Shown: piece after piece, positions 4,891-53,439 of the stretch
Numbering within the stretch: position 1 is the first letter of the stretch
How the letters are laid out: the number at the start of each line of letters is the position of its first letter
Source: Alphaproteobacteria bacterium
GTDB taxonomy: Bacteria > Pseudomonadota > Alphaproteobacteria > Rs-D84
Assembly: GCA_009783855.1 (NCBI GenBank)
Contig: WRCO01000002.1
Location: 25,038-89,037, forward strand
Direction of reading: 5' to 3'
Length of the DNA stretch: 64,000 bases
Notes under the pieces: generated by a model
Told to the model about the DNA's origin: nothing
The model's database searches: none
What the model saw: only the letters and a program-made list of their open reading frames with translations
Position numbers and translations under genes: made by a program

Positions 4891-4894
4891 GTTA

Positions 4895-17872: not shown

Positions 17873-17982
17873 TTTTCCTTGCATTTCCCCGATTCGTAGT
17901 TAATAATCCCCGTGTTCTTTAATAAATTAATTAGAGAGCGGGTTCGTAAAAGAGCCCGCTCTTTTAAGTAAGATGGTGGTTG

Positions 17983-27149: not shown

Positions 27150-28181
27150 TTAAAAACTTGCGCGGATGCCGGCCGTTATAAATGGCGAAAAGTCGCCGGC
27201 GTTTATAACCGCGCCGCCGGATGTGAAGACGCTGAAATACTGGTCTATTTTATACCGCAATGACGCAAGCCCCGTATGGGTAAGATAGGAATTCGGATGT
27301 TCGGGATTGTTGTCCCAGATGCCGACGGCGGAAAATATATAAGAAAGCGACCCGGACCAGTTAAGGAAATCGTAGGACGCGCCGATGCCCCCCTGCAGGC
27401 CGTCCGACGGAGCGGTTATCGGGTTGTTGTCGTAAATACCGCGCGCGGTTATGCCAAAGTTCCAACTTCTGTGCTGTATATTCGTGCCCAGCGCCAATTG
27501 ATACCGGGAATCGGCCGTGACGTTCGGCGCGTACGAATCCGCGGACAGGTTGTTCGGGCGGTCTATATACCCAGCGCCAATTGATACCGAATATTTCGTC
27601 CGGCCGTGCGGCATCCGGTATCTTATGCCGATGTCGGTTGCCGAATCGAAATTCGTATTGAACGGCGATACGGACATTCCGACCTGTACCGGTCTTGTCG
27701 GGACGGTCACGGTTGTCGCGCGGAACGCGTATCTTGTCCCGGTTGCGACCGGGTTGGCGATGACATTCCGGGCGCCGGTCATGTCATAGAAAAGCGGAGT
27801 GCTGTTCGCGCGAAGCGACCCGACATCGGGAAGTCCCACGCCAAGTTTCGCCGCTACGGATTCGGTCCATCCCAATTCCACGCGGCCGTACGGGCTTTCC
27901 GTAAAGATAAATATGTCGTTATAGAAATATTCGCGGTCGACTCCGGTCCGTTCAACAGAGTATACCGCGCCAAGCGTCCAGCCGTTCCATACCGCGTAAT
28001 TGGCCTGGGCCCTTATGCGATAATCGTACACCGTATATTCCGGCATACCCGCGCCGCCCGTCGCATGCCCCGAAAGGCGAAGCCCGACGCGGTTGCGGTT
28101 ATAAGTGAACGCATCGGCGCTTTGCACACAAAGCGCTGAAAGGCATAAGGCATAAGGCATAAGGCGTAAGAATTTTTTCAT
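27150..28181 (-). CDS. outer-membrane beta-barrel porin-like protein
   Basis: Signal MKKFLRLMPYALCLSALCVQSADA. C-terminal ...GIRASF. The signal peptide region contains a (ccttatg)x3 heptamer tract. Confidence 0.55.
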   Translation of the reverse strand: MKKFLRLMPYALCLSALCVQSADAFTYNRNRVGLRLSGHATGGAGMPEYTVYDYRIRAQANYAVWNGWTLGAVYSVERTGVDREYFYNDIFIFTESPYGRVELGWTESVAAKLGVGLPDVGSLRANSTPLFYDMTGARNVIANPVATGTRYAFRATTVTVPTRPVQVGMSVSPFNTNFDSATDIGIRYRMPHGRTKYSVSIGAGYIDRPNNLSADSYAPNVTADSRYQLALGTNIQHRSWNFGITARGIYDNNPITAPSDGLQGGIGASYDFLNWSGSLSYIFSAVGIWDNNPEHPNSYLTHTGLASLRYKIDQYFSVFTSGGAVINAGDFSPFITAGIRASF

Positions 28182-28245
28182 GGGCCAATTATAACACAAT
28201 AGCGTTGGCTGGCAAGAATTTTTGCAGGAACAAAATATATATGCC

Positions 28246-29196
28246 TTACGCCTTGTTGGCGTCGGCCAAGATTAACGATTGTAATTTTGTAAACGCGCGT
28301 TCTTCAATCTGTCTTACGCGTTCGCGCGAAATGCCCAATTTTTCCGACAATTGTTCAAGCGTCAGCGCCGGGTCGGACAGACGCCGCGCGACAAGAATCT
28401 CGCGGTCGCGTTCCGGCAGCGAGGCAAGGTGTTTGTGCAAAAGCTCGTGTCCGAATTTTCGAAACTGCAAATGCTCAATCCTGTCTTCGATGGATTCGGA
28501 ATCGTCCGCAAGATTGGACAGGATGTCCGTCCCTTCGCTTTCGTCGCTGTATGCGGGGCGGTTAAGCGAAAGGTCGCGCGCGCTTATGCGGCGGCTCATC
28601 CTTGTTACGTCTTGTTCCGGGACTTCCAGGTACTCCGCAATTTGTTTCGTCTGTTCGTCGGACAGGTTGTTGTCCATAATGCCAAGCGCGCGTTTCGCCC
28701 GCGCAAGGTTGAAGAACACGCGCTTTTGATTCGCGGATGTTCCGATTTTCACCATCGACCAGTTATTAAGGACGAAATCGTAAATCTCGGCCTTTATCCA
28801 AAACATCGCATAGGTCGAAAACCGAAACCCCCGGTCCGGGTCGAATTTTGATAAAGCCTGCATAAGGCCCAAATTTCCGGAAGCGATAAGTTCCGATATC
28901 GGAATGCCGTAATTCTTGAAATCATAGGCGACGGAAACCACCATGCGAAGATGGCTTGACACCAGTTTTTCCGCGGCGAACTTGTCGCGCGCATCGCGCC
29001 ATGCGACGGCGAATTCATGCTCTTCTTCGGCGGATAACAGGGGGAAAGCCTGGACCGACCTTATGTATCTTTCAAGGTTGGCGTCGTCGGACAGGGCGAC
29101 GGACGGCATGCCGTAAGCCGCCGGAAGCGCTGTCGCCGTTTTTTGGTTGTCTTTTTTCTTGTCTTTGTTTCCTTTCATGGTTAAATTATAGTGCAA
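28246..29196 (-). CDS. rpoH: RNA polymerase sigma-32 factor RpoH
   Basis: RpoH box QKRVFFNLARAKRAL. Regions 2 and 4 present (LSEKLGISRERVRQIEERAFTKL). Confidence 0.9.
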   Translation of the reverse strand: MHYNLTMKGNKDKKKDNQKTATALPAAYGMPSVALSDDANLERYIRSVQAFPLLSAEEEHEFAVAWRDARDKFAAEKLVSSHLRMVVSVAYDFKNYGIPISELIASGNLGLMQALSKFDPDRGFRFSTYAMFWIKAEIYDFVLNNWSMVKIGTSANQKRVFFNLARAKRALGIMDNNLSDEQTKQIAEYLEVPEQDVTRMSRRISARDLSLNRPAYSDESEGTDILSNLADDSESIEDRIEHLQFRKFGHELLHKHLASLPERDREILVARRLSDPALTLEQLSEKLGISRERVRQIEERAFTKLQSLILADANKA

Positions 29197-29261: not shown

Positions 29262-29966
29262 ATGAAATCCATGCTTGAAAAGTTCAAAAAGAACAAAACC
29301 GCCGTGCCGGCCCAGAAAAAAACACTTTCGGACCATGCGGAAGACGCGCTGTACCGCGAAGTTAATGAGGAAGTACAGGCACAGCAAATGTACGATTTCA
29401 TAAGAAAATACCTGCGCGTTCTTGTTGCGGTTGCGGCGCTTGCGGTCGTGGTTGTTGTCGCGCTTCAATTGTCAAAGGCTCAAAATGCCAAAACTTTGCG
29501 GCAATCCGCATCGGCATACGAATCGGCCATAATGATGCTTGACGCGGGCAACCCGGTTGCCGCCCGCGAAGCGCTTGTCCGCGCGGCAAGAAGCTCAAGC
29601 GGCGGTATGGCTGACCTTGCATTGTTTTCGGCCGCAAGGATAGATTTGCAAATGGGCGACAGCGACGCAGGAGTGGCAAAACTTGAACAGCTTGTCCGGA
29701 ATGGCCGGACGCGCGATTTTCGCGACCTTGCGCTTGTCAAGCTTGCCATGATGAGGGCGGAACACATGACGGGACGTCAGTTCGAGCAGTTCCTTGCCCC
29801 CGTACAGACCAAACGGTCGCCGTTCTATTACACCGGCATGCTTTTGGTTGCGAAAAAATATCTCTCTGTCGGCGAAGATGTCGCCGCCCGCAGATGGCTT
29901 GACAGAATTACGTCCGACCGCGGCGCCCCGCCAAGCGTTGTGGCAGAGGCGGAAATGTTGAGGTAG
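29262..29966 (+). CDS. YfgM-like membrane-anchored TPR protein (UPF0070)
   Basis: Cytoplasmic N-terminus, one TM (VLVAVAALAVVVVVAL) and a periplasmic TPR-like domain. Immediately upstream of the bamB-like gene, as in the yfgM-bamB arrangement. Confidence 0.55.
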   Translation: MKSMLEKFKKNKTAVPAQKKTLSDHAEDALYREVNEEVQAQQMYDFIRKYLRVLVAVAALAVVVVVALQLSKAQNAKTLRQSASAYESAIMMLDAGNPVAAREALVRAARSSSGGMADLALFSAARIDLQMGDSDAGVAKLEQLVRNGRTRDFRDLALVKLAMMRAEHMTGRQFEQFLAPVQTKRSPFYYTGMLLVAKKYLSVGEDVAARRWLDRITSDRGAPPSVVAEAEMLR

Positions 29967-29971
29967 AACAA

Positions 29972-30066
29972 AGAGCATAGGGCACAGATAAGTGTTGAAA
30001 TTAAAAAGATATTTTACGGATATTAAAAAAGCATCTATGCTCTATGCTCTATGCTCTATGCTCTTG
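29972..30066 (+). promoter_or_regulatory. conserved 5' cassette E1 plus (CTATGCT)x4 heptamer tract preceding the bamB-like gene
   Basis: cacagataagtgttgaaattaaaaagatattttacggatattaaaaaagcatct followed by atgctctatgctctatgctctatgctc. Near-identical copies are at 38930-39003 and 53440-53530; a diverged copy is at 40925-41040. Confidence 0.7.
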
Positions 30067-30765
30067 CTTTTGGCTGCCTGTTCCAAAACCGACCCTGTTT
30101 TGCCCGGAACGCGGCATCCCATATTCCATGCCGGCGGAATCAATCTTTTGGACCGGGCGGTGCCGGATTCCGCGCTTGCCGATATACGGGAGACCGGCAT
30201 ATATGACAATACGTATCGACAGGATTCGAACAATGTCGTCTGGCGGGATACAGAACGCGTATTTTCCGGACTTCCCACAAGCGCCCGCGTTGCGGGCGAA
30301 AGACGGCCGATGGTGGCGGGCGACCATATAATCGCAGGACTGTCGACCGGCGAAGTCGTAAAGGTAAACCGCAACACCAAAGAACCCGAATGGGTCGCGG
30401 ATGTATTCAGGACGTCCGCCATGACCGGCGGGTCAAGCATCCTTGACATAGTCGCGCCTGTTGTCATTGAAAACGACAGATTCATATATGCCGGCGGGCT
30501 TGGCAACGCTTTCTGCAAACTTGATTTTAACACGGGCGCTCGGATATGGTGCGCCGACATCGGCGTGGGCAAGCCGTTCATAGTCCGTGCGGGCGTATCA
30601 TACGTTGTCGGCACGAACGGATTCCTGTATGCGATTGACACCCGCTTGGGCGATGCGTTCTGGCGTGCGGAAATAAGAAGACAGGCAGAGCCGAAAATCT
30701 CCGGCAACGTTATTGCCGTTGGACGGGAAAAATTCGATGCAAGAACGGGGGATAAATTAAAGTGA
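29992..30765 (+). CDS. bamB: BamB-like PQQ beta-propeller lipoprotein (short form, 257 aa)
   Basis: Lipobox LLLAAC|S. PQQ-like repeats (DRFIYAGGLGNAFCKLDFNTGARIWCADIGVG, YVVGTNGFLYAIDTRLGDAFWRAEI). The start is ambiguous (GTG at 29992 or ATG at 30037). Confidence 0.55.
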   Translation: MLKLKRYFTDIKKASMLYALCSMLLLLAACSKTDPVLPGTRHPIFHAGGINLLDRAVPDSALADIRETGIYDNTYRQDSNNVVWRDTERVFSGLPTSARVAGERRPMVAGDHIIAGLSTGEVVKVNRNTKEPEWVADVFRTSAMTGGSSILDIVAPVVIENDRFIYAGGLGNAFCKLDFNTGARIWCADIGVGKPFIVRAGVSYVVGTNGFLYAIDTRLGDAFWRAEIRRQAEPKISGNVIAVGREKFDARTGDKLK

Positions 30766-31934: not shown

Positions 31935-32708
31935 CTAACAACTTTTAGCTGTCAGTTGTGTTAACTCTTTCCCGGTCAATTCTCTGAACTTTCCAGATTC
32001 CAGATTCCCAAGTTCTATCGGGCCGTAAGATTCCCGATTCAGCTTGGATACAGGGAGTCCAATATAATCAAACGCGATGCGGATTTCGTTTTTCTTGCCC
32101 TCGGTCAATTTGATTTTTACAAGCAATGGATAACGCGACAGCAATTCAATCTCCATGGGTGCGTATTTCACGCCGTCTATTGTCGCGCCGCGGCGAAGCG
32201 AATCAAACACGGAATCGTCCGCCGAAAGGGGCGATAAGAATTCACGAAGACGGCGGACGCCGTTCGGAGATTTTGCCGCCCCCGGGTCGGGTCGAAGCTT
32301 TGCGGTGTATACGCGGACGATTTTGGATTCCGGCAATGTCAGGCGCCTTGCAATATCGCCGTCGTTGGTAAGCAGCAGCAGTCCCGTCGTTTTGTAATCC
32401 AGCCGCCCGACATATTTCAAACCGCGCATATTTTTTGGCAGACAGTCGTAAATTGTTTTACGTCCGTCGGGGTCGCGCAGCGTCGTCATTGTGTTTGCCG
32501 GCTTGTTGAATGCGATTATTTGTGTTCGGGTTCGTGTGCGGACGGGTTCGTTATTTATGGCGACGACGTCATTCGGTTCGACAAAAAAGACGGGTGTTGT
32601 AACCGGTTTGCCGTTTACGGAAACGGAACCGTTTTCGATAAGACGCTCGGCCTCGCGCCGCGATGCGCCGCCAGAGTCAGAAATAAATTTAGCAAGTCTT
32701 GTTTTCAT
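31935..32708 (-). CDS. pseudouridine synthase RsuA/RluB family (S4 domain + PSU catalytic domain)
   Basis: S4 motif RLAKFISDSGGASRREAERLIENGSVSVNG. Catalytic GRLDYKTTGLLLLTNDG. The C-terminal tail encodes a family D repeat (NLESGKFRELT). Confidence 0.8.
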   Translation of the reverse strand: MKTRLAKFISDSGGASRREAERLIENGSVSVNGKPVTTPVFFVEPNDVVAINNEPVRTRTRTQIIAFNKPANTMTTLRDPDGRKTIYDCLPKNMRGLKYVGRLDYKTTGLLLLTNDGDIARRLTLPESKIVRVYTAKLRPDPGAAKSPNGVRRLREFLSPLSADDSVFDSLRRGATIDGVKYAPMEIELLSRYPLLVKIKLTEGKKNEIRIAFDYIGLPVSKLNRESYGPIELGNLESGKFRELTGKELTQLTAKSC

Positions 32709-32744
32709 AATAACAGTTGTTAGCTGTTAGTTGTTAGTTTTTAA
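32709..32744. repeat. family B repeat at the 3' flank of the T4CP gene
   Basis: cagttgttagctgttagttgttagttttt. Confidence 0.65.
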
Positions 32745-34980
32745 CTTCCCTTGTCTCCCCCGTCCCGTAATCGTATACTTTCGGCACGCCGGGGTACCCC
32801 ATTGTCGCGTGGTGCGACGGGACAAGAAATTCGGGCAACGCCGCCGCGCGCGGAATATCGGTAAGTTTGAACAAATCTTTTTCTTTGCCCGGCCAGACCC
32901 ACGGGACGTCCGCCTCAATCGGGCGATGCGGATAGCCCTGTAAAATCACAAGAAGTTTATCCGAATCAAGTTTCATTATGTCCATCGGACTGTAAAGCAG
33001 CGCCGCTTCTTTTTTGTCGTCTTTTACTTCGCCGGTTTTGTCGTCCGTCTTTTCTTCAATCTTTTTCTGGTATCCTATCATCCTGCTGAACTTGTCCGCA
33101 GTGTCGTAACTGTTTTGACGGAACACAAGTTTCACCGCTGTTGTCGATATTATGGTTTCGGCGGCGTCCGCACCGTATTTGTCCCGGATTTGGGCAATAT
33201 CCTGACCGATTATAAGATACGAAACCTGTTGTCCGCGGCCAAGGTCGGGCCCCTGAATCACAGCCTGCATCTTTTGCATTTTCGGCATTTCGTCCAGCAC
33301 GAACAAGACCGGCGTCGGCCCCAGTTTTTGACCGGCATGCGTATCTTCCGGCTTGTTGGTAAGAAGAAACGCCGACATAAGTTCGATGAATATCGCGCTT
33401 ATCGGATTCAATGCCTCCGCATCGACCATGTTTATGGAAAGGTAAACGGTAACCGGCTCCCACTTTCCCGTCTTTTTGTTTTTGATTCCGCGCAAATCGG
33501 AAAAATGAAAATCGGAATGCGACGTGCGGTTGCGGACGGCCGCGTTTCGGAAAATGTTAAGCCCCGACAATGCCGTCGACATAATCGACCCGCGTTCCTT
33601 GTCCGGCGTGTTTGCAAGCTGTGTAAGTTCTTGGATGGACCGGTGCGCGTATCCGTATTGGCGCGCCTCTTCGACCGCGTCGTGGAACAAATCCTTCATC
33701 GGGTCGGCCATCATCACCATCTGGTCGCCTTGTTTGCGCCTGTCTTCCAATTCTTCGGCGATTCTTATCTGGTTCGTGGTAAGCCAGTCAAGAACCATGG
33801 AAAGCGACGCCTCTTTGCCAACCCATGCGGCCGGTATATTCGCCCAGGTTCCGACGGGAACATAATTCGCGGCCGACAAAGCGCCCGTGGAAAGCATATG
33901 CCGCGCCGCCGCCGCGTTCGGGTCCCGCATCATCGCATACCGTTCGTCAAGAAGGACTCTGTCGGTCTGGTCGAATGTTCCGGAATCAAGGCGCGATTTG
34001 AAATAATCGTTCCATTTTGCGCGCTCTACCTTTGACACAATAAATTGTAAGAATCCGGTAAGCGCCGCGCGGCCCGTAGTGACCCAGTGCGGGTCGGCGG
34101 ACGACGTCGCCTTGTCCGCGACAAGCGTCGCGCAAATAGAGTCTATATAAAGGTCGCGTTTTTCTTGAACAAACGGCACGTGTTCGGGCGACAACGGATT
34201 CCACGACGGATAATATATGCCGCGTTCCGGGTCGTCTTGACCCGCCCAGTTTATGATGAACACCGGACCGATGCCCGCGCGGTACCCGCTTGTCAAAGCG
34301 TCCAATTCAGGTTTGGGGTCGTTGACAATCATGGACACCTTATCGCATTTGAATATGGTCGGCATAACTATGCCGCGGGATTTACCGGACCCCGGCGGCG
34401 CGACGCAAAGCGCGGACAATGTTTCGTCCAGCATAAGGAATTTCTTTTTGAATTTGCCAAGGACGATTATAAAACCGCCGAACAGGCCTTCTTTGTTCTT
34501 TTTGTCGCGGCCCATGCCCTTTACATCATTTTCGTTCGCCTTGCGGGAAGAATCGTCCGCCCACCAGTTCGTGCCATGCGGATTAAATTCGCCAAGGAAC
34601 GTCGGAATCGTAAGCAAATGATACGCGATTATTGCAAACAAGGGCGTAATAACCGGTAAATCGGGGCGAAGGACCGCGCGGACAAGCCATGCCGGAATCT
34701 CTGCAAAAATGCGCAGACCGAACGTATGCAGAATCTGGTCGAAATAAACATGAAGCCACGTGATTGTCGCCGGGCTCCACCCGTACCGCCATATATGCTC
34801 GATTGCAAAGGAAAGTCCGAACGCGGCGATGGATGCAAACCAGGCAAGGAAAAGATAACGGTATTTCCAGAACACAAGGCGCATGTGCGTCCGTTTGTCG
34901 CCCTTGTACGCGTCGGACGAAAAGATGCCAAGGCCCTTGCCTTTACCGCTTACAGATAAGATGTTGAACTTTGCAACCAT
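32734..34980 (-). CDS. type IV secretion coupling protein (VirD4/TraG/TrwB family ATPase), orphan
   Basis: 748 aa. N-terminal TM pair. Walker A LCVAPPGSGKSRGIVMPT (compare VirD4/TraG xAPTRSGKGVGxVIPN). Walker B PVLFVLDEMPKM. No other T4SS genes are adjacent. Confidence 0.6.
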   Translation of the reverse strand: MVAKFNILSVSGKGKGLGIFSSDAYKGDKRTHMRLVFWKYRYLFLAWFASIAAFGLSFAIEHIWRYGWSPATITWLHVYFDQILHTFGLRIFAEIPAWLVRAVLRPDLPVITPLFAIIAYHLLTIPTFLGEFNPHGTNWWADDSSRKANENDVKGMGRDKKNKEGLFGGFIIVLGKFKKKFLMLDETLSALCVAPPGSGKSRGIVMPTIFKCDKVSMIVNDPKPELDALTSGYRAGIGPVFIINWAGQDDPERGIYYPSWNPLSPEHVPFVQEKRDLYIDSICATLVADKATSSADPHWVTTGRAALTGFLQFIVSKVERAKWNDYFKSRLDSGTFDQTDRVLLDERYAMMRDPNAAAARHMLSTGALSAANYVPVGTWANIPAAWVGKEASLSMVLDWLTTNQIRIAEELEDRRKQGDQMVMMADPMKDLFHDAVEEARQYGYAHRSIQELTQLANTPDKERGSIMSTALSGLNIFRNAAVRNRTSHSDFHFSDLRGIKNKKTGKWEPVTVYLSINMVDAEALNPISAIFIELMSAFLLTNKPEDTHAGQKLGPTPVLFVLDEMPKMQKMQAVIQGPDLGRGQQVSYLIIGQDIAQIRDKYGADAAETIISTTAVKLVFRQNSYDTADKFSRMIGYQKKIEEKTDDKTGEVKDDKKEAALLYSPMDIMKLDSDKLLVILQGYPHRPIEADVPWVWPGKEKDLFKLTDIPRAAALPEFLVPSHHATMGYPGVPKVYDYGTGETREVKN

Positions 34981-35033
34981 AGTGGTATTATAACATAATA
35001 ACTGACAACTGACAACTAACAGCTAACAACTAG
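34981..35033. repeat. family B repeat at the 5' flank of the T4CP gene
   Basis: aactgacaactgacaactaacagctaacaac. Confidence 0.65.
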
Positions 35034-35035
35034 AG

Positions 35036-35722
35036 ATGAAAAATATACCAAGGATTTATATAAATGAAAATTTGGAAGTTGGGCGAAGTTTCCCGGTGTC
35101 CAGGGACATCGCGCATTATTTGACCCGTGTTATGCGAACGGACAGATGTTTGGTGTTCAATTATGGAAAAGAGTTCAAGGCTGAGCTTTCAGTTGTCAGC
35201 TGTTCGTTGTTAGTTGTCAGTCCTACTGGGCGGCCCGACCCGTCGAACAATTTGACGCTTGCGTTCGCGCCGGTAAAACAGGCGCGGATGGAGGAAATGC
35301 TTTCCATGGCGACCCAGATGGGCGTAAAAAGGCTTCAGCCCGTAATCACTGCCTTTGTAAATGAACATCATCCGAAATGGGAAAGGATTAAAAAAATTGT
35401 CATAGAGGCGGCGGAGCAATCCGGAAGAAACAGCGTGCCGGAATTGGCAGAGCCGCAAAAATTTACAGAATTTCTGCAGGGGGTAAAAGACTTGGTTTTT
35501 GCGGACGAACGGGCCGCGAGCCCCCGGTCCTTTCCAGATTCCGGGCTTGCGTTGCACGCGCCCCGGAATGACACAATCGTTTTGATAGGGTCAGAGGGCG
35601 GATTTTCAGACGCGGAATTTGATGCGCTGGACAAAGCGGGCGCGACTGGCATAAACCTTGGGCCGACAATTCTTCGGGCGGAGGTCGCTGCGGTGGTGGC
35701 GATTGCGAAAGTTGTTGGTTAA
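35036..35722 (+). CDS. rsmE: 16S rRNA (uracil1498-N3)-methyltransferase RsmE, with an in-frame family B repeat insertion
   Basis: N-terminus MKNIPRIYINENLEVG. SPOUT C-terminal IVLIGSEGGFSDAEFDALDKAGATGINLGPTILRAE. Residues ELSVVSCSLLVVSPTG are encoded by repeat 35188-35222. Confidence 0.8.
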   Translation: MKNIPRIYINENLEVGRSFPVSRDIAHYLTRVMRTDRCLVFNYGKEFKAELSVVSCSLLVVSPTGRPDPSNNLTLAFAPVKQARMEEMLSMATQMGVKRLQPVITAFVNEHHPKWERIKKIVIEAAEQSGRNSVPELAEPQKFTEFLQGVKDLVFADERAASPRSFPDSGLALHAPRNDTIVLIGSEGGFSDAEFDALDKAGATGINLGPTILRAEVAAVVAIAKVVG

Positions 35723-36195: not shown

Positions 36196-37644
36196 ATGGA
36201 GAGAACGACAAACCAAAGCAGCGGAAATTTCATGTTACAGGCCTTGCTTGCGCTTGCGCTTGTCATCGCGTTTATGCCCATGCTTGTGCGGAAAATGGCG
36301 CGCTCGGGGTTCGATGCGGAAATGAACGCGGCCATGCAACAGGTTAATTCCGCGGTGCCGGCCGTGCGCGCGTTCGGGCGGGATAATTACGATTCGCTTC
36401 AATTCGGCGTCCAGATATACGAAGGACGGGATTTCCAAGACGCTTTGGAACCGTACGGGCTTCCCATCGGGTTTGTGCCGCGGACGCCCTTGGGACAGAA
36501 CATCGTCATGATTACAACGCGGAACGACAGCGAGACCATCGCATGGCTTCGTATTATGGGCGGGCGCGCGACCGGGATAGAAAAGGCCGAACTTGCTTTG
36601 CGCATCGGATTCTGGGCGGCGGATGTGGACGGCAACAGGCTTTCCGGCGCGACCGGCGGATGGGACAAGGATATGACGGAATTCGGATACAGGCCGGCAA
36701 GCGGCGCCATATACGTCCGCGTGCCGCTTTCGCATGAATTTTCGGACCTTCTTTCCACCACCGCGCGAAATATCGAAGCCAACCGGATGCACGTAAACCT
36801 TAACATGGGCGGCCGCGATGTGCGCGCCGCGCGCGACATAACCGCACGCGAAGGGAATTTCCGTTCGGTGCTTTCCGGCGATTTCATCCTTTCCGGGGCG
36901 GAAGACGGCCGGCGCCAAAGAAACAGATTTTCCGAACTTAACATACGCCGCGCTCATTTTCAATCAAGGGACGGTTCGAACGCGCTTAACATATCGCGCG
37001 GCACGATGAATGCCCGCTCCGTGGTTGCGCCGACCGTATCCAGATATGGCGACCCGGGTAATCTTACAAGCGAATCCGTATCCGTGCACAATTTTGCGAT
37101 GGCGGCCGGACGCACGGGGTTTATGGGCCCCACCGTATGGGAAGTGCGCGGCGATGCGATATTAAGCAATGTGACGCTTAACACCGAACGCGTGGAGGTC
37201 GGCGGATATATAAACGCCACGCGCGGCCAGGACGTGTTCGTGGATGAAGACGAGCTTACCTTTAATCAAAAATCCGGAATAGAAACCAATATCGTATCGG
37301 CGACCGCGCTTACCCTGCGCGACCAGACTTCGAACGTTCTGCTTGAAGGAGGGTCGGGACCGGTAATCATCGACATCCGGCCGGCGGGGGTTTCCGTGTT
37401 GCCCGACGTGCTTTTGGCCGGGATAAACAACGACGGCATCGCGGCGCTTGCAAGCCCGTCGGACGAATCAGACATAATGACCGCATGCAGAGGCATAATC
37501 GGCGGCCTTCCCGGAGTGAACGCAAGGTACGAGCAGAATTCGCTGGCGCAGAATATAATATGCCGGTTTGTGTTTTGGCAAAGGCTTGAACAAAGAATAG
37601 ACAAGATGCAATGCATACTTGATAGAGGGGAGGAGAATTGTTAA
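36196..37644 (+). CDS. TadG-like large pseudopilin-family protein (prepilin-type N-terminus G|NFMLQALLALALV; beta-helix-like C-terminal repeats)
   Basis: N-terminus QSSGNFMLQALLALALVIAFMPML resembles the TadE/G-like (RGNxAxxFAL) class III signal. Shares the paralog motif MHVNLNMGGRDVRAARDITA with the next two genes. Confidence 0.45.
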   Translation: MERTTNQSSGNFMLQALLALALVIAFMPMLVRKMARSGFDAEMNAAMQQVNSAVPAVRAFGRDNYDSLQFGVQIYEGRDFQDALEPYGLPIGFVPRTPLGQNIVMITTRNDSETIAWLRIMGGRATGIEKAELALRIGFWAADVDGNRLSGATGGWDKDMTEFGYRPASGAIYVRVPLSHEFSDLLSTTARNIEANRMHVNLNMGGRDVRAARDITAREGNFRSVLSGDFILSGAEDGRRQRNRFSELNIRRAHFQSRDGSNALNISRGTMNARSVVAPTVSRYGDPGNLTSESVSVHNFAMAAGRTGFMGPTVWEVRGDAILSNVTLNTERVEVGGYINATRGQDVFVDEDELTFNQKSGIETNIVSATALTLRDQTSNVLLEGGSGPVIIDIRPAGVSVLPDVLLAGINNDGIAALASPSDESDIMTACRGIIGGLPGVNARYEQNSLAQNIICRFVFWQRLEQRIDKMQCILDRGEENC

Positions 37645-38923
37645 GGCGTATATGAACCTGATAAAAATGATTTTCACCGGAACAGACAGCGCGCCCCGCC
37701 TTACGTCTTGCGGCGACGAACGCGGCGCAAGTCTTCTTGAAACGCTTCTTGCCATCGGGCTTGTCGCGGCGATGGCGCCTTTTGCGTACAACCGCGTGCT
37801 TGACGTAAGCCGCGATATAGCCGACGTCGCCGCCGCGCGGCGCATTCATAATTGGAAGGAAGCCGCCAAGGGATTTATCCGCGCAAACCAGATGGATTGG
37901 GAGGACGATGCGATTTTTGAGCTTTCCGAACGCGACCTTGTCGCGATACGGGCGCCGGACGAAGGAAAACAGGCCATCTTTCCATACGCCGCGTTTATTG
38001 AAAAATTCAGTCATGCGGGCGGCACGACCATAGAGGCGTATATTCTGTTCCCCGGCGAATTCGACGGAATCCGTATGCACCGCATCGCGCACCATCTTGG
38101 CGCGGACGCCGCCGTCGCGGGCGACGCGCAAATCGCATTTTCCGCAAGCGGCGGCTGGAGCATAGAATCGGACATATTGGAAGAAAATGATATTGTGTTC
38201 CGCGTGTCCGTAAATATGCCGATAGACGATTCATACGCGTTCATGCACCGGGTGGATACCGGCGACGAAAGGCTTAATACCATGGAGCGTGACCTGTCCA
38301 TGTCGCGCAACGACATAGTCCATGCGGGCGCGGTTAACGCAGGTCTTCTTGATTCCAAAATGGTCGGTGCATGGTTTGCGGGCGGCGGTGCATTTTCCGC
38401 GGACGAAGCCGTATTCCCCCAAGGCGCCAATGTCGACGGCGGCGGAGTATCGTTCGCGGCGGTCCGCGTTGTGGGGGATATTATCGGTTTTCGTAATATA
38501 CATGCGGGCATATTCGCGGGCGGCGGCGGGGCCTTGAACTGGTCCGCTCAGGGGAATATAATCGCCGACCGGGTGAATATAGCCGAAGCGGTTCACGTTG
38601 GAAGAAACATGACCGTAAGGTCTCCAAACGTCCGAACGGTTTCCGGATTCCTTGGCATAAGCGTGCATTCTCTGGCGACCCCGTTTGTATCCACCGAAGA
38701 ATTGCGGTTTGCGGACGGCTTTGGGCTTTCAATTTCCAACGAACTTTCGGCAAGCTTTACCGACGGGCCGTTAAGGCTTGGCAACTGGGCGTTTCCGCGG
38801 ACACCTGCGCCAAGATTTGCGGACCTTGTCCTTACACAAGGAGGCGCAGTCAAAGGCGGCGTGCCAACAGGATTTGAAAACATAATGAGCAGGAATTGGA
38901 AGGCTTTAAGGCCAAGGGAATAA
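37619..38923 (+). CDS. TadE/G-like pseudopilin-family protein 2 (G|ASLLETLLAIGLVAAMAPF, Glu at +5)
   Basis: Prepilin peptidase-type site ERG|ASLLE. Gly-rich beta-helix-like C-terminal half (GANVDGGGVSFAAVRVVGDIIGFRNIHAGIFAGGGGALNW). Start alternatives at 37652 or 37667. Confidence 0.45.
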   Translation: MIEGRRIVKAYMNLIKMIFTGTDSAPRLTSCGDERGASLLETLLAIGLVAAMAPFAYNRVLDVSRDIADVAAARRIHNWKEAAKGFIRANQMDWEDDAIFELSERDLVAIRAPDEGKQAIFPYAAFIEKFSHAGGTTIEAYILFPGEFDGIRMHRIAHHLGADAAVAGDAQIAFSASGGWSIESDILEENDIVFRVSVNMPIDDSYAFMHRVDTGDERLNTMERDLSMSRNDIVHAGAVNAGLLDSKMVGAWFAGGGAFSADEAVFPQGANVDGGGVSFAAVRVVGDIIGFRNIHAGIFAGGGGALNWSAQGNIIADRVNIAEAVHVGRNMTVRSPNVRTVSGFLGISVHSLATPFVSTEELRFADGFGLSISNELSASFTDGPLRLGNWAFPRTPAPRFADLVLTQGGAVKGGVPTGFENIMSRNWKALRPRE

Positions 38924-38929
38924 AAATAG

Positions 38930-39003
38930 AGCAAAGACAATAGAGCGCAGATAAATGTTGAGATTAAAAAGATATTTTACGGATATTAAAAAAGCATCTA
39001 TGC
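38930..39003 (+). promoter_or_regulatory. conserved 5' cassette E2 (no heptamer expansion)
   Basis: cgcagataaatgttgagattaaaaagatattttacggatattaaaaaagcatctatgct. Confidence 0.7.
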
Positions 39004-40307
39004 TTTTGCCTGTGCGAACGCGTTCTCGCAGCGAGCGCGGCGCGACGCTTGTCGAACTTCTTCTTGCGCTGGCGGTGGCGGCGGCCATGCTTCCATTTAT
39101 AATAAGACAGGCCGACGTGCGGACCCGCCGCGCGGAAAATATAAAAGCCGCCGCCGACCTTGGCAAAGTCAAATCCGCGCTTGAAAGATATATGGAAGCG
39201 AACAGGCACGAGCTTTTCTCGACCATAAGCCGGAACGTCGTGCGCGTATCGATTTCCGATTTGGAAGAACACGGGCTTGATACCGCCAATCTTGACAAGT
39301 CGGAACAGTTCCAGATGCGCGTCGTTAAAAGCGCGGACCGGGGCGGGCGGTCGTTTCTTCAGGGCGTCGTCATCATGGACACGGAAGGCATCGCGCCGAT
39401 AAGGACGCGCGAAATCGCGGCAATCGCCGGCGGCGGCGCGGGATTCGCCGACGATAACATAACATACGGCGCATTCGGAACATGGCGCGTAAGCGCGAAC
39501 GTATGGAACGCGCGGTTTACCGACAGGTCGCTTCTTGAAGTCACGGATGCCATACGGTCGGGCGAAGAATTCCTGCGCCGCATAGTGTACGAAGACGGCG
39601 GCGCGATGATGCATTCGCCGCTTGCCCTTGGCGGGCACGACATAGTCAACGCGCGGTCGGTGTTCGCGGAATCCGCGCGCTTTGCCGAATTCGTGAATTT
39701 TACGAACGCATCGGCAAGCCGCCTTGTCATGGAAGGCAAACCGACACTTGACGGCAATGTGACCATATCCGGAGAATCAACGGTTTCGGGCGTGCTGAGT
39801 TCCGATTCACGAAGCATGGAAGTCGGCCGCATGACGGTATCCGGCACTTCGCGGTTCGGCACGGTTAATGCAAACGAATTATGGGCGGGCGATTTGGAGC
39901 TTGCCGGATTTTCGGTCCAAATTGACGAGCGTCGCCCCGCCACGCTGTCGGTCGGCCGGTCGATTGACATGACCGGCGGACGCGTTGTCTCCATGCTTGT
40001 CGCGGTGGGACACGGGGGAAGCACTACGCCGCGGCTTTTCGTAAAAGACCGGGTTGAAGACGCAAGAAATCCCGAATATTTTTGGGATGTCGCGACGGGT
40101 GAAGCCATGCTTTCCGACATATTTATCCCCGCGCTTTCCAATATGGCGCGGACCGCCATAGGCCGCGAACAGCCGGGAACGGAATCTCATCGCATCCTGT
40201 CCCAGGTTGCGAACAACGCCAACGCGACGGTCGCGGATTATATGCGCGCGCTTGCCGAAATAGAACGCCGCGTCACGGCAAGGTTTGATGCGTTGAATTT
40301 GGAATAA
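38955..40307 (+). CDS. TadE/G-like pseudopilin-family protein 3 (SERG|ATLVELLLALAVAAAMLPF)
   Basis: Class III signal with Glu at +5. Beta-helix-like repeats (GNVTISGESTVSGVLSS...MTVSGTSRFGTV). The probable true start is the ATG at 39000 (MLLPVRTRSRSERG leader). Confidence 0.45.
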   Translation: MLRLKRYFTDIKKASMLLPVRTRSRSERGATLVELLLALAVAAAMLPFIIRQADVRTRRAENIKAAADLGKVKSALERYMEANRHELFSTISRNVVRVSISDLEEHGLDTANLDKSEQFQMRVVKSADRGGRSFLQGVVIMDTEGIAPIRTREIAAIAGGGAGFADDNITYGAFGTWRVSANVWNARFTDRSLLEVTDAIRSGEEFLRRIVYEDGGAMMHSPLALGGHDIVNARSVFAESARFAEFVNFTNASASRLVMEGKPTLDGNVTISGESTVSGVLSSDSRSMEVGRMTVSGTSRFGTVNANELWAGDLELAGFSVQIDERRPATLSVGRSIDMTGGRVVSMLVAVGHGGSTTPRLFVKDRVEDARNPEYFWDVATGEAMLSDIFIPALSNMARTAIGREQPGTESHRILSQVANNANATVADYMRALAEIERRVTARFDALNLE

Positions 40308-41512: not shown

Positions 41513-42478
41513 GTGAAGCGTGAGGAATTTGTTTTCATCGTTGAAGAACAGGACGCGGGTTTGCGTGTCGATAAATTTATCGCGTCCAGATTGACCGAAT
41601 ATTCTCGTTCTGAAATCCAAAAATTTCAAATAACGAAATCTGGCGCTGCAACAAAGCTTTCCGAAAAGGTAAAGCTTGGTGAAAAATATGAAGTTGCCGT
41701 TTTAATAAATATGCCTTGTGCCTTGTGTCCTATGCCTTCTTCGAAAAAAATATCCTTGGATATTTTATTCGAAGACGACGACATCATCGTTGTCAACAAG
41801 CCGCGCGGAATCGCAATGTATCCGGGCGCGGGACGCGACAGCGGAACATTGGTGCAAAGCGTTCTGGCGCATACGAATCTGTCGTCCATCGGCGCGGACG
41901 GCATGCGGCCCGGCGTTGTTCACCGCATCGACAAAGACACGTCCGGCGTTGTGATTTTTGCAAAAACGGATTCGGCGCACCGTGCGCTTGTCACGGTTTT
42001 TTCCGAACACAATCTGGTGCGGAAATATATCGCGTTTATTTGGGGCGTGCCGAACTGGCTTTCCGCGGATATTTCCGGAAACATAGGGCGGTCGACGCGC
42101 AACCGCCAAAAAATGACTATGGTCAAAACCGGCGGAAAGCCCGCGCACACAAGCGCCGAGGCTATAAACGTCTGGCCGCGCGCGAATATTTCGGAATTGC
42201 GGTGCACTTTGGACACCGGCCGCACGCATCAGATTCGCGTCCATCTTGCCGCGCATGGTTTTCCCGTTTTGTGCGACCCGCTTTACGGGCGGGGCGGGGC
42301 GCGGCTGGGCAGTGTCAAGGACCCGGAATTATTGGAATTTCTGCGTGAAAACCGCGGTCAGATGCTTCATGCCGAAGTATTGGAATTAACGCATCCGATA
42401 ACCGGCGCGCCATGCAAATTCCGCGCTAAATTGCCGGGGGACATGAGTGCGTTGAAAGAGATTCTTAACGAAAAGTGA
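41513..42478 (+). CDS. rluD: pseudouridine synthase RluD/RluC family, with an in-frame family C heptamer repeat insertion
   Basis: S4-like N-terminus. Catalytic HRIDKDTSGVVIFAKT. GTG start. Residues NMPCALCPMPSS are encoded by atgccttgtgccttgtgtcctatgcctt (41711-41740). Confidence 0.85.
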   Translation: MKREEFVFIVEEQDAGLRVDKFIASRLTEYSRSEIQKFQITKSGAATKLSEKVKLGEKYEVAVLINMPCALCPMPSSKKISLDILFEDDDIIVVNKPRGIAMYPGAGRDSGTLVQSVLAHTNLSSIGADGMRPGVVHRIDKDTSGVVIFAKTDSAHRALVTVFSEHNLVRKYIAFIWGVPNWLSADISGNIGRSTRNRQKMTMVKTGGKPAHTSAEAINVWPRANISELRCTLDTGRTHQIRVHLAAHGFPVLCDPLYGRGGARLGSVKDPELLEFLRENRGQMLHAEVLELTHPITGAPCKFRAKLPGDMSALKEILNEK

Positions 42479-42605
42479 AAAATGAAGAGTGAAAAGTTGT
42501 TGTGTCGCGACAAAGCCGCGAACGCAACCACTTTTCACCCGTCATTATTCATTTGATTGATTTCCCCCAATATGATAAAATAAGTTGAAATAAAGAGAGG
42601 ATAAT

Positions 42606-45541: not shown

Positions 45542-45570
45542 CCCCGTCATCCCGGCGAAGGCCGGGACCC
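45542..45570. repeat. family D inverted repeat, left arm (ccccgtcatcccggcgaaggccgggaccc), flanking the GIY-YIG gene
   Basis: Reverse-complementary to 45968-45993. Related copies at 60341-60368. Confidence 0.7.
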
Positions 45571-45577
45571 ACTGCCT

Positions 45578-45946
45578 TCAGGCTGTCTGTATATTTATCT
45601 CATCCGGCTTATATTCCGGCACAGGTTCAGCATAGGCATGTATGCCCGCGCCGCGAATTTCATCCCAAAGGTCTATCCAATACGGATTCTTGCTTATTAT
45701 CAAACGCAATTTCCAATTGCGTTTCCATTCTTTTAACTGTCTTTCCCGCCGAACCATTAATTCCATATCTTCAAAAAATTCATAATATACGATTTTATCA
45801 ACACCGTATTTCGTGGTAAACCCGCCGTAGAATTTTTCCTTGTGCTGTGCGACGCGGGCAATCAAATCGGAACTTGACCCGATGTACAGCGTTCCCATTT
45901 TATCGCTTGCTATAATATATACAAATCCGGCTTTCTTATTCAGCAT
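45578..45946 (-). CDS. GIY-YIG nuclease superfamily protein (small stand-alone type)
   Basis: FVYIIASDKMGTLYIGSSSDLIARVAQHKEK...YGVDKIVYYEFFEDMELMVRRERQLKEW gives the GIY...YIG motif plus conserved R and E. Confidence 0.7.
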   Translation of the reverse strand: MLNKKAGFVYIIASDKMGTLYIGSSSDLIARVAQHKEKFYGGFTTKYGVDKIVYYEFFEDMELMVRRERQLKEWKRNWKLRLIISKNPYWIDLWDEIRGAGIHAYAEPVPEYKPDEINIQTA

Positions 45947-45967
45947 CAGAGAATGTCGTTCCGCAAT

Positions 45968-45993
45968 GGTTCCCGGCCTTCGCCGGGATGACG
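45968..45993. repeat. family D inverted repeat, right arm (ggttcccggccttcgccgggatgacg)
   Basis: Pairs with 45542-45570 across the GIY-YIG gene. Confidence 0.7.
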
Positions 45994-46034: not shown

Positions 46035-46706
46035 TTACAACTTCACAATTCCATTCGTTGCGAACAGCTGTCCGTTTTCTTCGTATATTTTTCCGCCGGA
46101 TTCAAGCACCATCAATTCTCCGGCGCAAAGCTCCGCGTAATTCAAAGGGTCGCTTATAAACGCGTCAAACTTTCCCGTTGCAACAAACGCCAAATCAAGC
46201 GCCGCACAGCCGGTCGCACGCTTCGCGCCGGTATTCGGTATCCGGTATTCGGTATTCGAATAACCGATGGTAAGGTCCGCCGGATCGGACAGTTTCGACA
46301 CGCGGTGGCGGTTGGAATGGAACGCACTGAAAATAAAACATCCCGCGTCTTTTTCCGCGTAATACAATTTATCCGCAATCGGCGCGTATGTAAGGCCTGC
46401 GCGCGCCTCGCCGTTCACGCGAAGCGCAAGCGTTATCGCAAAATGTGAATTGCCGCGCACGAAATTCTCGGCGCCCGAAAACGCCAAAACAAATTCGGAA
46501 ATCCCGTCGCCGTCCGTCGACATGTTCGGAGTCAATACGCCCGCAGTCGGCCGCACAAGCGTCAAATCCGACAGAATCATTTGTTCGATTCTTTGTTCGG
46601 CCCTGCGCACAAAATCGCGCGCGCCGGGCAATGATTGCTGAAGCTGTTCCACCTCTCCGAAATCGCGGCGGATACCCGTCGCCGTCCGCGACAATGCCGC
46701 AAACAT
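46035..46706 (-). pseudogene. inositol monophosphatase (SuhB) family, degenerate and N-terminally truncated
   Basis: C-terminal AALDLAFVATGKFDAFI motif is present. The catalytic DPxDGT is replaced by FSGAENF. A family D 52-bp repeat lies upstream (46756-46808). Confidence 0.4.
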
Positions 46707-47118: not shown

Positions 47119-47192
47119 TGGTTGGGGCGCAGGGACTCGAACCCCGATAAACAGAACCAAAATCTGTTGTCCTACCATTAGACGACACCCCA
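47119..47192 (-). tRNA. tRNA-Gln (anticodon TTG)
   Basis: Reverse complement: tggggtgtcgtctaatggtaggacaacagattttggttctgtttatcggggttcgagtccctgcgccccaacca. Anticodon loop ttTTGgt, T-arm GGTTCGAGTCC, CCA encoded. Confidence 0.8.
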
Positions 47193-47816: not shown

Positions 47817-48036
47817 ATTAGTGGCTGGTGGCTAGTGATTAGTGGTTGGTGGTTTGTGGCTTGTGCCGGTGACTGGTACGGTTGTCTGATATATTAGACA
47901 ATCATTAATTAACGCATAAATTAAAGGCTGTCCACTATAGTGGACAGCCTTTAATTACAGGCCATTAATACGAACCACCGGCACGAGTCACGAGCACGAA
48001 TCGCCAGCACAAGCCACAAGCACAAGTCACCGGCCA
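47817..48036. repeat. largest family A composite palindromic repeat (~220 bp) with central perfect palindrome ggctgtccactatagtggacagcc
   Basis: Left arm tggtggctagtgattagtggttggtggtttgtggcttgtgccggtgactgg. Right arm cgaaccaccggcacgagtcacgagcacgaatcgccagcacaagccacaagcacaagtcaccgg. Confidence 0.7.
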
Positions 48037-48040
48037 TCAA

Positions 48041-49366
48041 TCACTTCTGAAGGCCCGCGTATGTTTTTTTGACGCCGCTCCAAAGGCCTTTGCCCTGCTC
48101 CTTTGCCTTGTTATAATATTCTTCGGGCACCTTTATACCCTTGAACAGGTTGTTTATTATCGCCGGAATCGACGTCATGAAAAATCCGATAAACAAACCC
48201 GCCATGATTATTGTAACCAGGCTTGTATTCTGAAGCGTAAGACCGTCCATAAGATACCGCGAATCATTGTTCTCCAACGCCGTTTGCAGCAAATCCGAAC
48301 CCTGGAACTCTCCGAACATCGCATTCAAAAACATCACCGCAAACACGACAAGGACGGCGACCGCAACAATGCCAACCGTATTCTTGACAAGGTCGTCTAT
48401 CATACCCTTAATCTTTTCGCCTTTGGCGCCCGGCATGACTTTCCAATCGCTGAACACCCAGCCCAAAAGAAACAGCGGAAGCATTATCAAATCCAACGAA
48501 ATCCGCATAATCGTTTCAAGAAAATACATCGGAATCGGAAGCAGCGCCATAAAAAACAAAAATATGATTATCGCACCCGCCGCAATAAGACCCATGTTCG
48601 GAAATATCGGTATATCCCACAAAAATGTGTGCATATAACGCACATCGAACGCAGAATTAAGCAGTGTCCAGCCGACAGTCATGCCAAGCCCCGTCATCTT
48701 GTGAATCCCGCCCAATTGACAGGTCAGATTATGCCGAAGCCTTGGCGAAAATATCCCGTCCGGCGAACCTGTGCTGCCTTCGGCGATTGCGGTTGCGATG
48801 ATGCAGGCTTCGAACGCATGCCTGTTTCCTTCGTCGGCAAACCTGTCCGCCGCGCCGCGGCCAAGCGACAGGCCGGTGTTGAATACAGGCTCTATCAGCG
48901 CGCCGCCGATAATCTTTGGAAGCGGCGCCAAAAGCAGCGCGCTGACAAATATAAGCTTTACAAGCAGAATACCGAATTTCTCGGCAAGCGTCCACGCGCC
49001 GCCTTCTTTTTTCATATCAACCTCGGCGCCTTTTGCGCCTATCCAGCTTGAAATGACGGTCCATGCGACCCAAACCGCCGCAAGCCCAAGCGATATCGGA
49101 ATCACGGCAAGCCCGACAGCCCTGTATATCCTTGGCACAAAGTCGGAAAGCGACGCGACAACGCCGCCGAACATGCCGCATGTCCAACAGCTTGAAAAGA
49201 ATGTAAGCGCGCCCGACATATCAACCGGCGCAAAAGACCTGTATATCGAAAATCCGATGATGCCGCCCCCAGCGGCGATGCCGCCGATGGCAAGCATCGA
49301 AATCGCCGACGCCGATAACGGAAACAGCGCAAGAAATGCGGGAAAAAGTTTTTTTAATTTATCCAC
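48041..49366 (-). CDS. polytopic membrane protein, paralog P1 of a 5-gene family (signal peptide; CWTCGMF motif)
   Basis: 441 aa, at least 8 TM. SSCWTCGMFGG. C-terminal tail KKTYAGLQK is shared with P2 and P5. Divergent from P2. Confidence 0.4.
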   Translation of the reverse strand: MDKLKKLFPAFLALFPLSASAISMLAIGGIAAGGGIIGFSIYRSFAPVDMSGALTFFSSCWTCGMFGGVVASLSDFVPRIYRAVGLAVIPISLGLAAVWVAWTVISSWIGAKGAEVDMKKEGGAWTLAEKFGILLVKLIFVSALLLAPLPKIIGGALIEPVFNTGLSLGRGAADRFADEGNRHAFEACIIATAIAEGSTGSPDGIFSPRLRHNLTCQLGGIHKMTGLGMTVGWTLLNSAFDVRYMHTFLWDIPIFPNMGLIAAGAIIIFLFFMALLPIPMYFLETIMRISLDLIMLPLFLLGWVFSDWKVMPGAKGEKIKGMIDDLVKNTVGIVAVAVLVVFAVMFLNAMFGEFQGSDLLQTALENNDSRYLMDGLTLQNTSLVTIIMAGLFIGFFMTSIPAIINNLFKGIKVPEEYYNKAKEQGKGLWSGVKKTYAGLQK

Positions 49367-49413
49367 AAATCCCCCGGAATTTGCTTTGCATTATACCATA
49401 AATCTTTCCTATA

Positions 49414-50718: not shown

Positions 50719-50720
50719 TA

Positions 50721-53434: not shown

Positions 53435-53439
53435 TAGAA

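Follow-up and report, generated by a model that had tools for sequence, protein, structure and literature searches.

Lineage-specific inverted arrays of heptamer repeats at gene boundaries in an uncultured alphaproteobacterium, with coding arms in rsmE and lptD

The rsmE locus and the Family B repeats

The gene rsmE, which encodes the 228-residue 16S rRNA m3U1498 methyltransferase, occupies positions 35036-35722 (+) of a 64,000-nucleotide stretch of contig WRCO01000002.1 (the window), part of an uncultured alphaproteobacterial metagenome-assembled genome of 52% GC. Its product is 100% identical to NCBI MCL2757868.1, annotated as RsmE; homologs carry the precomputed domain PF04452, and 11 solved structures belong to homologs of the RsmE family. 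The JGI call for this protein has 196 residues, a difference of 32. The genes for RluB and for a VirD4/TraG-like type IV coupling protein (T4CP) lie upstream on the - strand, and the rluB-T4CP / rsmE synteny is kept in relatives. A short repeat within rsmE is one arm of an inverted pair of heptamer-periodic repeats, each of about 4-5 units of 7 bp.

The repeat was recognized as a 29-mer, gttgtcagctgttcgttgttagttgtcag, which has an exact match at 35192-35220 (+) with a chance expectation of 0. It is made of about 4 tandem copies of the 7-bp unit CAGTTGT and is translated in frame as ...AELSVVSCSLLVVSPTG... The whole coding arm (35189-35221, +) contains about 4.4 heptamers, CAGTTGT, CAGCTGT, TCGTTGT, TAGTTGT and CAGT, and encodes RsmE residues 52-62, SVVSCSLLVVS. 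A reverse-complement copy of the 29-mer with 3 mismatches, likewise with a chance expectation of 0, is found at 35002-35030 within the leader arm (34993-35034, +). The leader arm consists of about 5 heptamers (TAACTGA, CAACTGA, CAACTAA, CAGCTAA and CAACTAG), stops 1 nt before the rsmE ATG and occupies the whole gap from a conserved -10-like box to the start codon. The flagged arm and positions 35001-35031 are 90% complementary over 31 nt, with 159 nt between the arms. The RNA of 34993-35228 is predicted to fold with a minimum free energy of -77.9 kcal/mol (z -5.8), a long-range stem closing a loop that contains the rsmE start codon.

A search of the window with the pattern AGTTGTYAGYTGTYAGTTGT, allowing at most 3 mismatches, gave 16 overlapping matches to this repeat family (Family B), against 0.01 expected. 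The matches fall into 7 sites: 13549-13577, 16569-16605, 16645-16677, 31940-31959, 32711-32748, 34993-35034 (between T4CP and rsmE) and 35184-35224. The pair at lptD resembles that at rsmE. The lptD open reading frame (ORF) of 689 codons (14571-16640, -) opens with MQNYSFHFFRTALVISCSLLVVSSTYALS, followed by the conserved mature N-terminus. Its coding arm (16569-16605, -) encodes ALVISCSLLVVSS inside MQNYSFHFFRTALVISCSLLVVSSTYALS and forms the hydrophobic core, or h-region, of the signal peptide. The leader arm (16643-16677, -) overlaps the stop codon of the permease gene upstream (LptF/LptG family), ends 2 nt before the ATG at 16640 and is complementary to 16571-16595. The predicted RNA stem likewise encloses the start codon (minimum free energy -35.4 kcal/mol, z -5.0). 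The NCBI version of LptD, with 671 residues, starts inside the signal peptide, 18 residues short of the ortholog-supported 689-residue frame.

The Family B array at 32711-32748 (+) overlaps the T4CP stop codon and, as the leader of rluB, stops 2 nt before the rluB ATG; 25 nt of it are 96% complementary to 35007-35031, and the rsmE leader arm is correspondingly complementary to 32715-32739. A degenerate copy with 3 mismatches is located at the rluB stop codon (31940-31959, +). The array at 13549-13577 (-) is immediately upstream of the rlmN ATG and has no nearby inverted partner.

These results bear on the initial annotation of the region. It had described an element inside rsmE that leaves the frame intact, a related peptide in the LptD signal peptide and further copies flanking T4CP and rluB, all of which agree with the positions given above. 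A copy near rlmN is also present, except that on the - strand it precedes the gene rather than following it. The description of the element as palindromic has to be abandoned: for six single Family B copies taken as single-stranded DNA, the folding energies are 0 to -4.5 kcal/mol, in most cases no better than those of shuffled sequences, and the element is a tandem heptamer array.

Period-7 arrays as a class in the window and in relatives

Family B is one of many such families. A scan of the window found 24 arrays of period 7 at a threshold of 16/21 matches, compared with 0-2 for each of the other periods from 4 to 12. At a threshold of 18/21 there were 12, and none in 50 shuffles. Period 7 also accounted for 27 of the 68 rows in the output of Tandem Repeats Finder (TRF). 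At least 8 unrelated units occur, among them CAACTGA, GAGCACA, AAGGCAT, TTTTGAG, AAAGTGA, CGGTATT, GTGGCTG and TAGATAG. The copy number is always about 4-5 in spite of the differences between units, and the repeats within arrays are imperfect, with 75-95% matches. Inverted partners with at least 18/24 complementary positions within 350 nt were found for 15 of the 24 arrays (the 95th percentile of the null was 17), while partners in direct orientation were at the null level.

The census of pairs was made in the window and six related loci. These seven loci contain 36 pairs: the arms lie around a start codon in 18 and around nothing but a stop codon in 11, while 4 pairs are intergenic and 3 intragenic. 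The arrays comprise many unit families and are overwhelmingly located at gene boundaries. One arm is translated in all 15 start-enclosing pairs examined, and both arms lie inside the gene in 3 pairs. The arms can form predicted stems of 24-38 bp. The spacers between them measure 8-279 nt and often hold the start codon together with conserved codons.

Arrays of this class are restricted to a single lineage of Alphaproteobacteria, uncultured and of gut type. Among the related loci (cited by their numbers), L085 has 27 period-7 arrays in 20.7 kb, confirmed by TRF, L001 has 15 in 17.7 kb, and L003, L005, L086, L087 and L088 have 4-6 each. Ten loci of the Ca. Enterousia type (L006-L015) have none, and 1.18 Mb from other Alphaproteobacteria contained 2.

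In six genomes (the window, L003, L085, L086, L001 and L125) an array is found at the same rsmE codons, about 50-70, together with an upstream array that ends 0-6 nt from the ATG in five of them and 108 nt upstream in L003. The two arms are complementary at 22-23 of 24 positions in four of the six. A cross-genome complementarity matrix served as the control, and arms taken from different genomes matched at 11-18 of 24. The units of the four pairs differ: CAACTGA in the window, GAACTAA in L003, TAACAAT in L086 and AAGGCAT in L085. In the coding arm, each unit of L003 departs from that of the window at the same base (GTTGT in the window, GTTCT in L003), and the leader arm has the complementary change. 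A base change that runs through all units and is mirrored in both arms indicates concerted evolution within and between arms. The lptD pair is found in both the window and L085, and so are CCACGAA-type arrays between the LptF/LptG-family gene and nusA (14962 and 15061 in L085). Across diverged genomes the pairs keep their places at rsmE and its 3' end, at lptD and ahead of the LptF/LptG-family gene, with units that differ and yet stay complementary.

Encoded proteins, arm sequences and further array pairs

The initial annotation regarded the rsmE repeat as an in-frame insertion, possibly in a surface loop. The alignment of 28 RsmE sequences does not bear this out: residues 52-62 face no gap, and their columns are filled in every ortholog. 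The repeat-coded residues are situated between the invariant A49 and D68/P69, and array-free relatives have the same length here; the closest solved RsmE, PDB 4j3c, is 2 residues longer at this segment. In the AlphaFold model (predicted local distance difference test score, pLDDT, 88.9), residues 45-52 and 57-63 form two strands joined by a 4-residue turn, with pLDDT above 90, which would place them in a strand-turn-strand of the N-terminal domain and not in an added loop. The repeat is therefore a replacement: it overwrites the codons of a core beta-hairpin of the N-terminal domain, variable in sequence, at unchanged length.

The leader arm, by contrast, is extra DNA. Genomes with arrays have about 33-40 nt of array between the -10-like box and the ATG, whereas array-free relatives lack the arm and have the box about 8 nt from the rsmE ATG. 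In L089, L121 and L124 this box is TGnTATTAT-like, about 8 nt before the ATG, which implies a leaderless or very short-leader mRNA. The box, which belongs to the region corresponding to 34966-35035 of the window, overlaps the start codon of the divergent T4CP gene.

Other proteins may have gained residues. LptD exceeds its counterparts from array-free relatives by about 7-9 residues at the N-terminus, so some net addition is possible there. In MurG, when compared with PDB 7d1i, an 8-residue insertion is found where the first of the two murG arms lies. LptD and MurG suggest that arrays can add residues in proteins other than RsmE. A second hot spot of arrays in rsmE was noted in L087 (7990-8098), L114 (1304-1437) and L121 (490-590), where complementary arrays flank the conserved LVFADER strand in a variable, low-pLDDT region, residues about 146-180; those of L087 add residues (KGLGIS).

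The effect of coding constraint on the arms was visible when each coding arm was replaced by the exact complement of its own leader arm in 15 pairs. This created 6 in-frame stops, and in all 6 cases the real coding arm has a mismatch that removes the stop. The change is TAG to TCG in rsmE and lptD of the window, rsmE of L003 and lptD of L085, and TGA to TGC in the porin gene of L085 and in that gene of L086 which starts at 14227. Two of the pairs have no other mismatch. The TTCG common to the rsmE and lptD copies, and with it the peptide SCSLL, is due to stop avoidance in the same family and the same reading frame. The common peptide is no sign of a special relationship between rsmE and lptD.

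Three further features characterize the arms. Wobble pairs were sought at mismatched stem positions of the sense RNA, and G.U was not in excess over A.C (30 versus 34). The two arms of a pair have their variant units in exactly mirrored order, and this order is common to other loci. Whole units are also repeated: a near-identical stretch of about 60 nt, comprising the end of an arm, the start codon, the n-region codons MLKLKRYFTDIKKAS and the start of the second arm, is found on three unrelated genes of the window. The porin 5' hairpin of L085 (arm, loop and arm) has a second, non-coding copy between the convergent rsmE and infB genes (10685-10812 compared with 2995-3120), with 85.7% identity over 105 nt, and thus whole hairpins are duplicated as units. 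The mirrored unit order, the absence of a G.U excess and the copies of whole units point to copying and homogenization at the DNA level, and appear unlike slow compensatory evolution under selection on RNA. Differences in copy number were sought between contigs that come from the same organisms but were assembled separately (L001/L002, L003/L004 and L085/L090), which proved 100% identical, the samples perhaps not being independent.

The coding arms of the window are mostly found in signal-peptide h-regions, namely those of the SurA-position protein, LptD, the porin-position protein, BamB and the product of ORF 53460. The pair GAGCACA / TGTGCTC (14444-14563, -) brackets the start of the SurA-position periplasmic protein, its coding arm being read as CSLVCALCS in the signal peptide, and the pair AAGGCAT / ATGCCTT (28134-28256, -) brackets that of the porin-position outer-membrane protein (coding arm LRLMPYALCL). 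At the bamB start (29964-30071, +) a hairpin cassette is composed of a GAGCATA-type arm, the start codon, the conserved n-region LKLKRYFTDIKKAS and a TCTATGC arm that encodes the h-region. A second copy (53458-53538, +) is found on the unrelated secreted ORF 53460-54932 and a third (38926-39010, +), with a decayed 3' arm, on the prepilin-like ORF 38955-40307. The stretch of about 60 nt runs from 29982 to 30045 at bamB, from 38945 to 39008 in the prepilin-like ORF and from 53477 to 53540 in the secreted ORF; GTG or ATG is at the same position in each, the n-region is (M/V)L(K/R)LKRYFTDIKKAS, and the whole resembles a portable leader and signal-peptide cassette.

Intragenic pairs are GGCATAA / ATGCCYT with a 19-nt loop inside a recF-like ORF (437-506, +) and CGGTATT / CCGAATA in the murG interdomain region (57884-58013, +). 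An unpaired CGGTATT array (46226-46261) is located in an inositol monophosphatase-family gene; its unit family, as the reverse complement, also makes up the murG pair, 11.6 kb away. Features to which no strand is assigned are the pair GGCGTAA / TTACGCC (3019-3086) between ORFs read as accB and accC by N-terminal sequence alone, TTTTGAG / CTCAAAA with a 62-nt loop at the rnpA stop (4889-5025), AAGTGAA / TTCACTT at the stop codon of a gene for a pseudouridine synthase (42473-42554), two hairpin-forming pairs of the TTCGTGG / CCACGAA type in the spacer that separates nusA from the divergent LptF/LptG-family permease gene (17749-18076), and long arrays of the GTGGCTG type and its complement between two - strand genes (47819-48045).

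Some features of the window are of another kind. A small GIY-YIG nuclease ORF (45578-45946, -) is flanked by 31-nt inverted repeats, 94% complementary and spanning 45545-45993, each of which holds the GC-rich hairpin CCCGGCGAAGGCCGGG; it is possibly a separate mobile unit, and L086 also has a GIY-YIG ORF. Two runs of large ORFs (36196-40307 and 48041-54932) are without a Pfam match, and some of them have prepilin-like N-termini (…RGATLVELLLAL…) or signal peptides. At Rfam gathering thresholds, the array pairs of the window gave no match; the only matches were two tRNA genes (9139-9211, +, and 47122-47192, -).

Origin and possible role of the paired arrays

The explanation favoured here, with about as much confidence as doubt, is that hairpin-forming heptamer arrays evolve concertedly at the DNA level and are tolerated at permissive coding sites. 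The arms would have been copied from dispersed members of their family, and slippage within arrays, ectopic gene conversion and short-range template switching between the inverted arms would preserve their periodicity and complementarity. Purifying selection would veto just those changes that break the protein, such as an in-frame TAG or TGA, and arrays would last solely where they can be tolerated, namely in leaders and intergenic spacers, in the h-regions of signal peptides and in variable loops. Template switching is established as a mechanism that homogenizes the arms of inverted repeats (PMC8604942, PMC7202029), and quasipalindrome or short-range template switching (PMC7202029, PMC8604942, PMC5941160) fits the near-identical arms, the length-neutral patches and the strand-symmetric mismatches. 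It is, however, a mutational mechanism and not an element family, and leaves the 7-nt periodicity and the dispersal of the families unexplained. In the transcript, the stem would cover the leader and the ribosome-binding region and leave a base-paired 5' end. Because it would occlude these regions, a modulating effect on translation initiation or on mRNA stability and processing is plausible, and likely as a consequence, whether or not it is the selected function.

Several points weigh against this explanation. The copying or homogenizing process and its enzyme are hypothetical. The pairs straddle 150-280 nt of conserved coding sequence, which is easier to explain if pairing itself is selected, and the same applies to the conservation of pair positions across genomes, between which RsmE is only 57-70% identical. 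In L001 and L125 both rsmE sites carry an array, but the two do not pair. The leader arm retains the complement of the stop avoided by the coding arm, which simple arm-to-arm conversion should erase. The 7-nt length of the unit does not follow from this explanation. Lastly, gene starts in the window were taken from a simple ORF scan.

The strongest rival is that the pairs are selected cis-regulatory RNA hairpins, in which the leader arm pairs with the early coding region and sequesters the ribosome-binding region. They might act as a translation gate opened by helicases, S1 or an upstream ribosome, or as RNase III sites or protective 5' or 3' stems that punctuate polycistronic mRNAs; jointly, these variants are a minority possibility that deserves to be kept in mind. 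Strong stems are predicted around start codons, 29 of the 36 pairs enclose a start or stop codon with 4 more being intergenic, pair positions persist in diverged genomes with different yet complementary units, and a pair that straddles conserved coding sequence cannot result from a single insertion. The rsmE leader arms, moreover, end 0-6 nt from the ATG at 5 of 6 loci, as described for TAACTGA repeats (PMC4679880). On the other hand, sense-strand G.U pairs are no more frequent than A.C, stems of 24-38 bp at the starts of the essential genes lptD, bamB and the SurA-position gene would inhibit strongly, complementarity is lacking at rsmE of L001 and L125, and the predicted hairpins have no Rfam match. 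When the conserved positions and the straddled coding sequence are set against the DNA-level signals, the DNA-level explanation therefore keeps the larger share of our confidence and the selected hairpin a lesser one.

A broader proposal, to be taken as tentative throughout, is that of a previously undescribed gene-boundary system. In this lineage of gut Alphaproteobacteria, interchangeable heptamer arms would form long stems around translation starts and provide genome-wide post-transcriptional control or mRNA punctuation, with portable cassettes, and concerted co-evolution of both arms would maintain the system. The arms would lie in the leader and in the first 20-65 codons, in signal peptides and variable loops, and the cassettes would consist of leader, start codon and signal peptide.

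The arrays might instead be binding sites for a nucleic-acid-binding protein, one heptamer being one site, with leader arrays recruiting or blocking ribosomes and the inverted partners incidental. This reading is improbable. It draws on the TAACTGA repeats (MacGregor 2015, PMC4679880), known from marine Beggiatoaceae as well as some Cyanobacteria and Bacteroidetes, for which such a protein has been proposed (PMC4679880). These repeats are the closest known system, and REP/REPIN doublets are likewise close. The TAACTGA repeats are present as 2-6 tandem forward copies with stops in all frames just upstream of start codons, at the place of the Shine-Dalgarno sequence, and their reverse orientation is tolerated inside ORFs as LSVISYQ-like peptides (PMC4679880). 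The Family B unit (C/T)AACTGA is identical to TAACTGA or one base from it, and in the rsmE leader array, of 4-5 copies, one unit is exact and the others are 1-2 bases off. As in PMC4679880, 4-5 forward copies abut start codons, here at distances of 1 nt (rsmE), 2 nt (lptD) and 2 nt (rluB) from the ATG; reverse copies are translated in rsmE (as SVVSCSL) and in lptD; and the distribution is patchy and lineage-specific. TAACTGA repeats, however, have one dominant unit, with related heptamers rarely repeated and one indirect repeat among 170 sets (PMC4679880), whereas the arrays described here have many unrelated units, mostly in inverted pairs with an arm that is often coding, in an alphaproteobacterial host, and with arms that co-vary between genomes. 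A single sequence-specific binder cannot explain a class with at least 8 unrelated units in the 64-kb window and more in relatives. Inverted pairing far above chance and the use of different units at the same site across genomes also speak against it.

Less probable still is transposition of a selfish palindromic element into rsmE and lptD, in frame, in the manner of Rickettsia palindromic elements (RPEs) or MITEs (miniature transposable elements with inverted repeats). Dispersed copies do agree in how their variant units are ordered, duplicates of entire arm-loop-arm units, about 60-105 nt long, are found on unrelated genes and at an intergenic site, one murG arm coincides with an 8-residue insertion and the LptD N-terminus is extended. 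But RsmE has no added residues, a single copy is not a palindrome and measures about 30 bp as against about 150 bp for RPEs (PMC10969869), and the rsmE pair, straddling 159 nt of conserved native sequence, therefore did not enter as a single unit. No transposase appeared when 20 ORFs of the window were scanned against Pfam; the sequences flanking a few pairs, inspected by eye and not searched systematically, gave no target-site duplications. A MITE with terminal inverted repeats was rejected for its loop, which at rsmE is native coding sequence, and for the lack of target-site duplications in the few flanks inspected by eye, again without a systematic search. An invertible, inverton-like switch was likewise rejected: the loops contain conserved codons for the N-termini of essential proteins, and the orientation of these codons was the same in all relatives examined.

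The comparison with RPEs, proposed in the initial annotation, holds in part. The repeats are dispersed and linked to a hairpin-forming inverted symmetry, and like RPEs they are translated in frame at structurally tolerant positions of conserved housekeeping proteins in an alphaproteobacterial host, which is the only likeness to RPEs; what does not hold is the size, the architecture and the insertion into RsmE. RPEs are single palindromic units of about 100-150 bp that encode a family-specific peptide of about 30-50 residues (PMC10969869). Here, a tandem array of 29-42 bp encodes 11-13 residues, about 11 residues of RsmE are replaced at unchanged length, and the partner arm is outside the gene. 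With REP, BIME and REPIN sequences (PMC3116915, PMC3337134, PMC3733652) the arrays have in common that they are short (20-40 nt), dispersed and arranged as inverted hairpin doublets at gene boundaries, that they persist and are homogenized within a lineage, and that whole doublets are sometimes copied as a unit. REP sequences are imperfect palindromes one by one, lie outside genes, have short and regular spacers and are associated with RAYT (PMC3116915), whereas the single arrays are not palindromic, have spacers of 8-279 nt with coding sequence and show an internal 7-nt periodicity; no RAYT (IS200/IS605-like Y1 transposase) was found in the same scan of 20 ORFs of the 64-kb window.

The arrays may also be compared with long simple-sequence repeats and with the cyanobacterial STRR heptanucleotide repeats, reportedly described by Mazel in 1990. 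They resemble both as tandem heptanucleotides of several families that are abundant in a lineage and mostly non-coding; those repeats, unlike the present arrays, have not been described as short inverted pairs of fixed length around start codons or in essential coding sequence. That the arrays are ordinary slippage-made repeats serving as contingency (phase-variation) loci is hardly credible: heptanucleotides are the commonest class of long simple-sequence repeats in many bacteria, with a proposed origin in slippage (Mrazek 2007, as reported in PMC4679880), but the units here are imperfect with a copy number held narrowly at 4-5, the order of variants is mirrored in the partner arm and common to several loci, a 7-nt change would cause a frameshift in the essential genes concerned, and the separately assembled contigs are identical across the arrays, though perhaps not independent samples.

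The repeats are best classed as lineage-specific, multi-family inverted heptamer arrays at gene boundaries, akin to heptamer leader repeats and REPIN-like doublets. A literature search found no description of paired heptamer arrays in Alphaproteobacteria, which is weak evidence since most subscription journals were outside the search. In practice, the arrays mislead start-codon calling, as in the public LptD and RsmE entries, off by 18 and 32 residues. The finding extends the unexplained TAACTGA-type heptamer repeats to Alphaproteobacteria and suggests that partner arms in coding regions may be present in the lineages in which those repeats were first described. If DNA-level drive alone is responsible, the arrays would be a natural example of concerted evolution of short inverted repeats across coding boundaries, in which repeats overwrite core protein segments at constant length and purifying selection can be seen acting on individual nucleotides (TAG to TCG). 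Should the pairing be functional, a common structural switch would lie over the start codons of essential genes for the envelope and for ribosome biogenesis in this lineage (lptD, bamB, rsmE and the SurA-position gene), and the arrays would represent a new kind of global translational or mRNA-processing layer.

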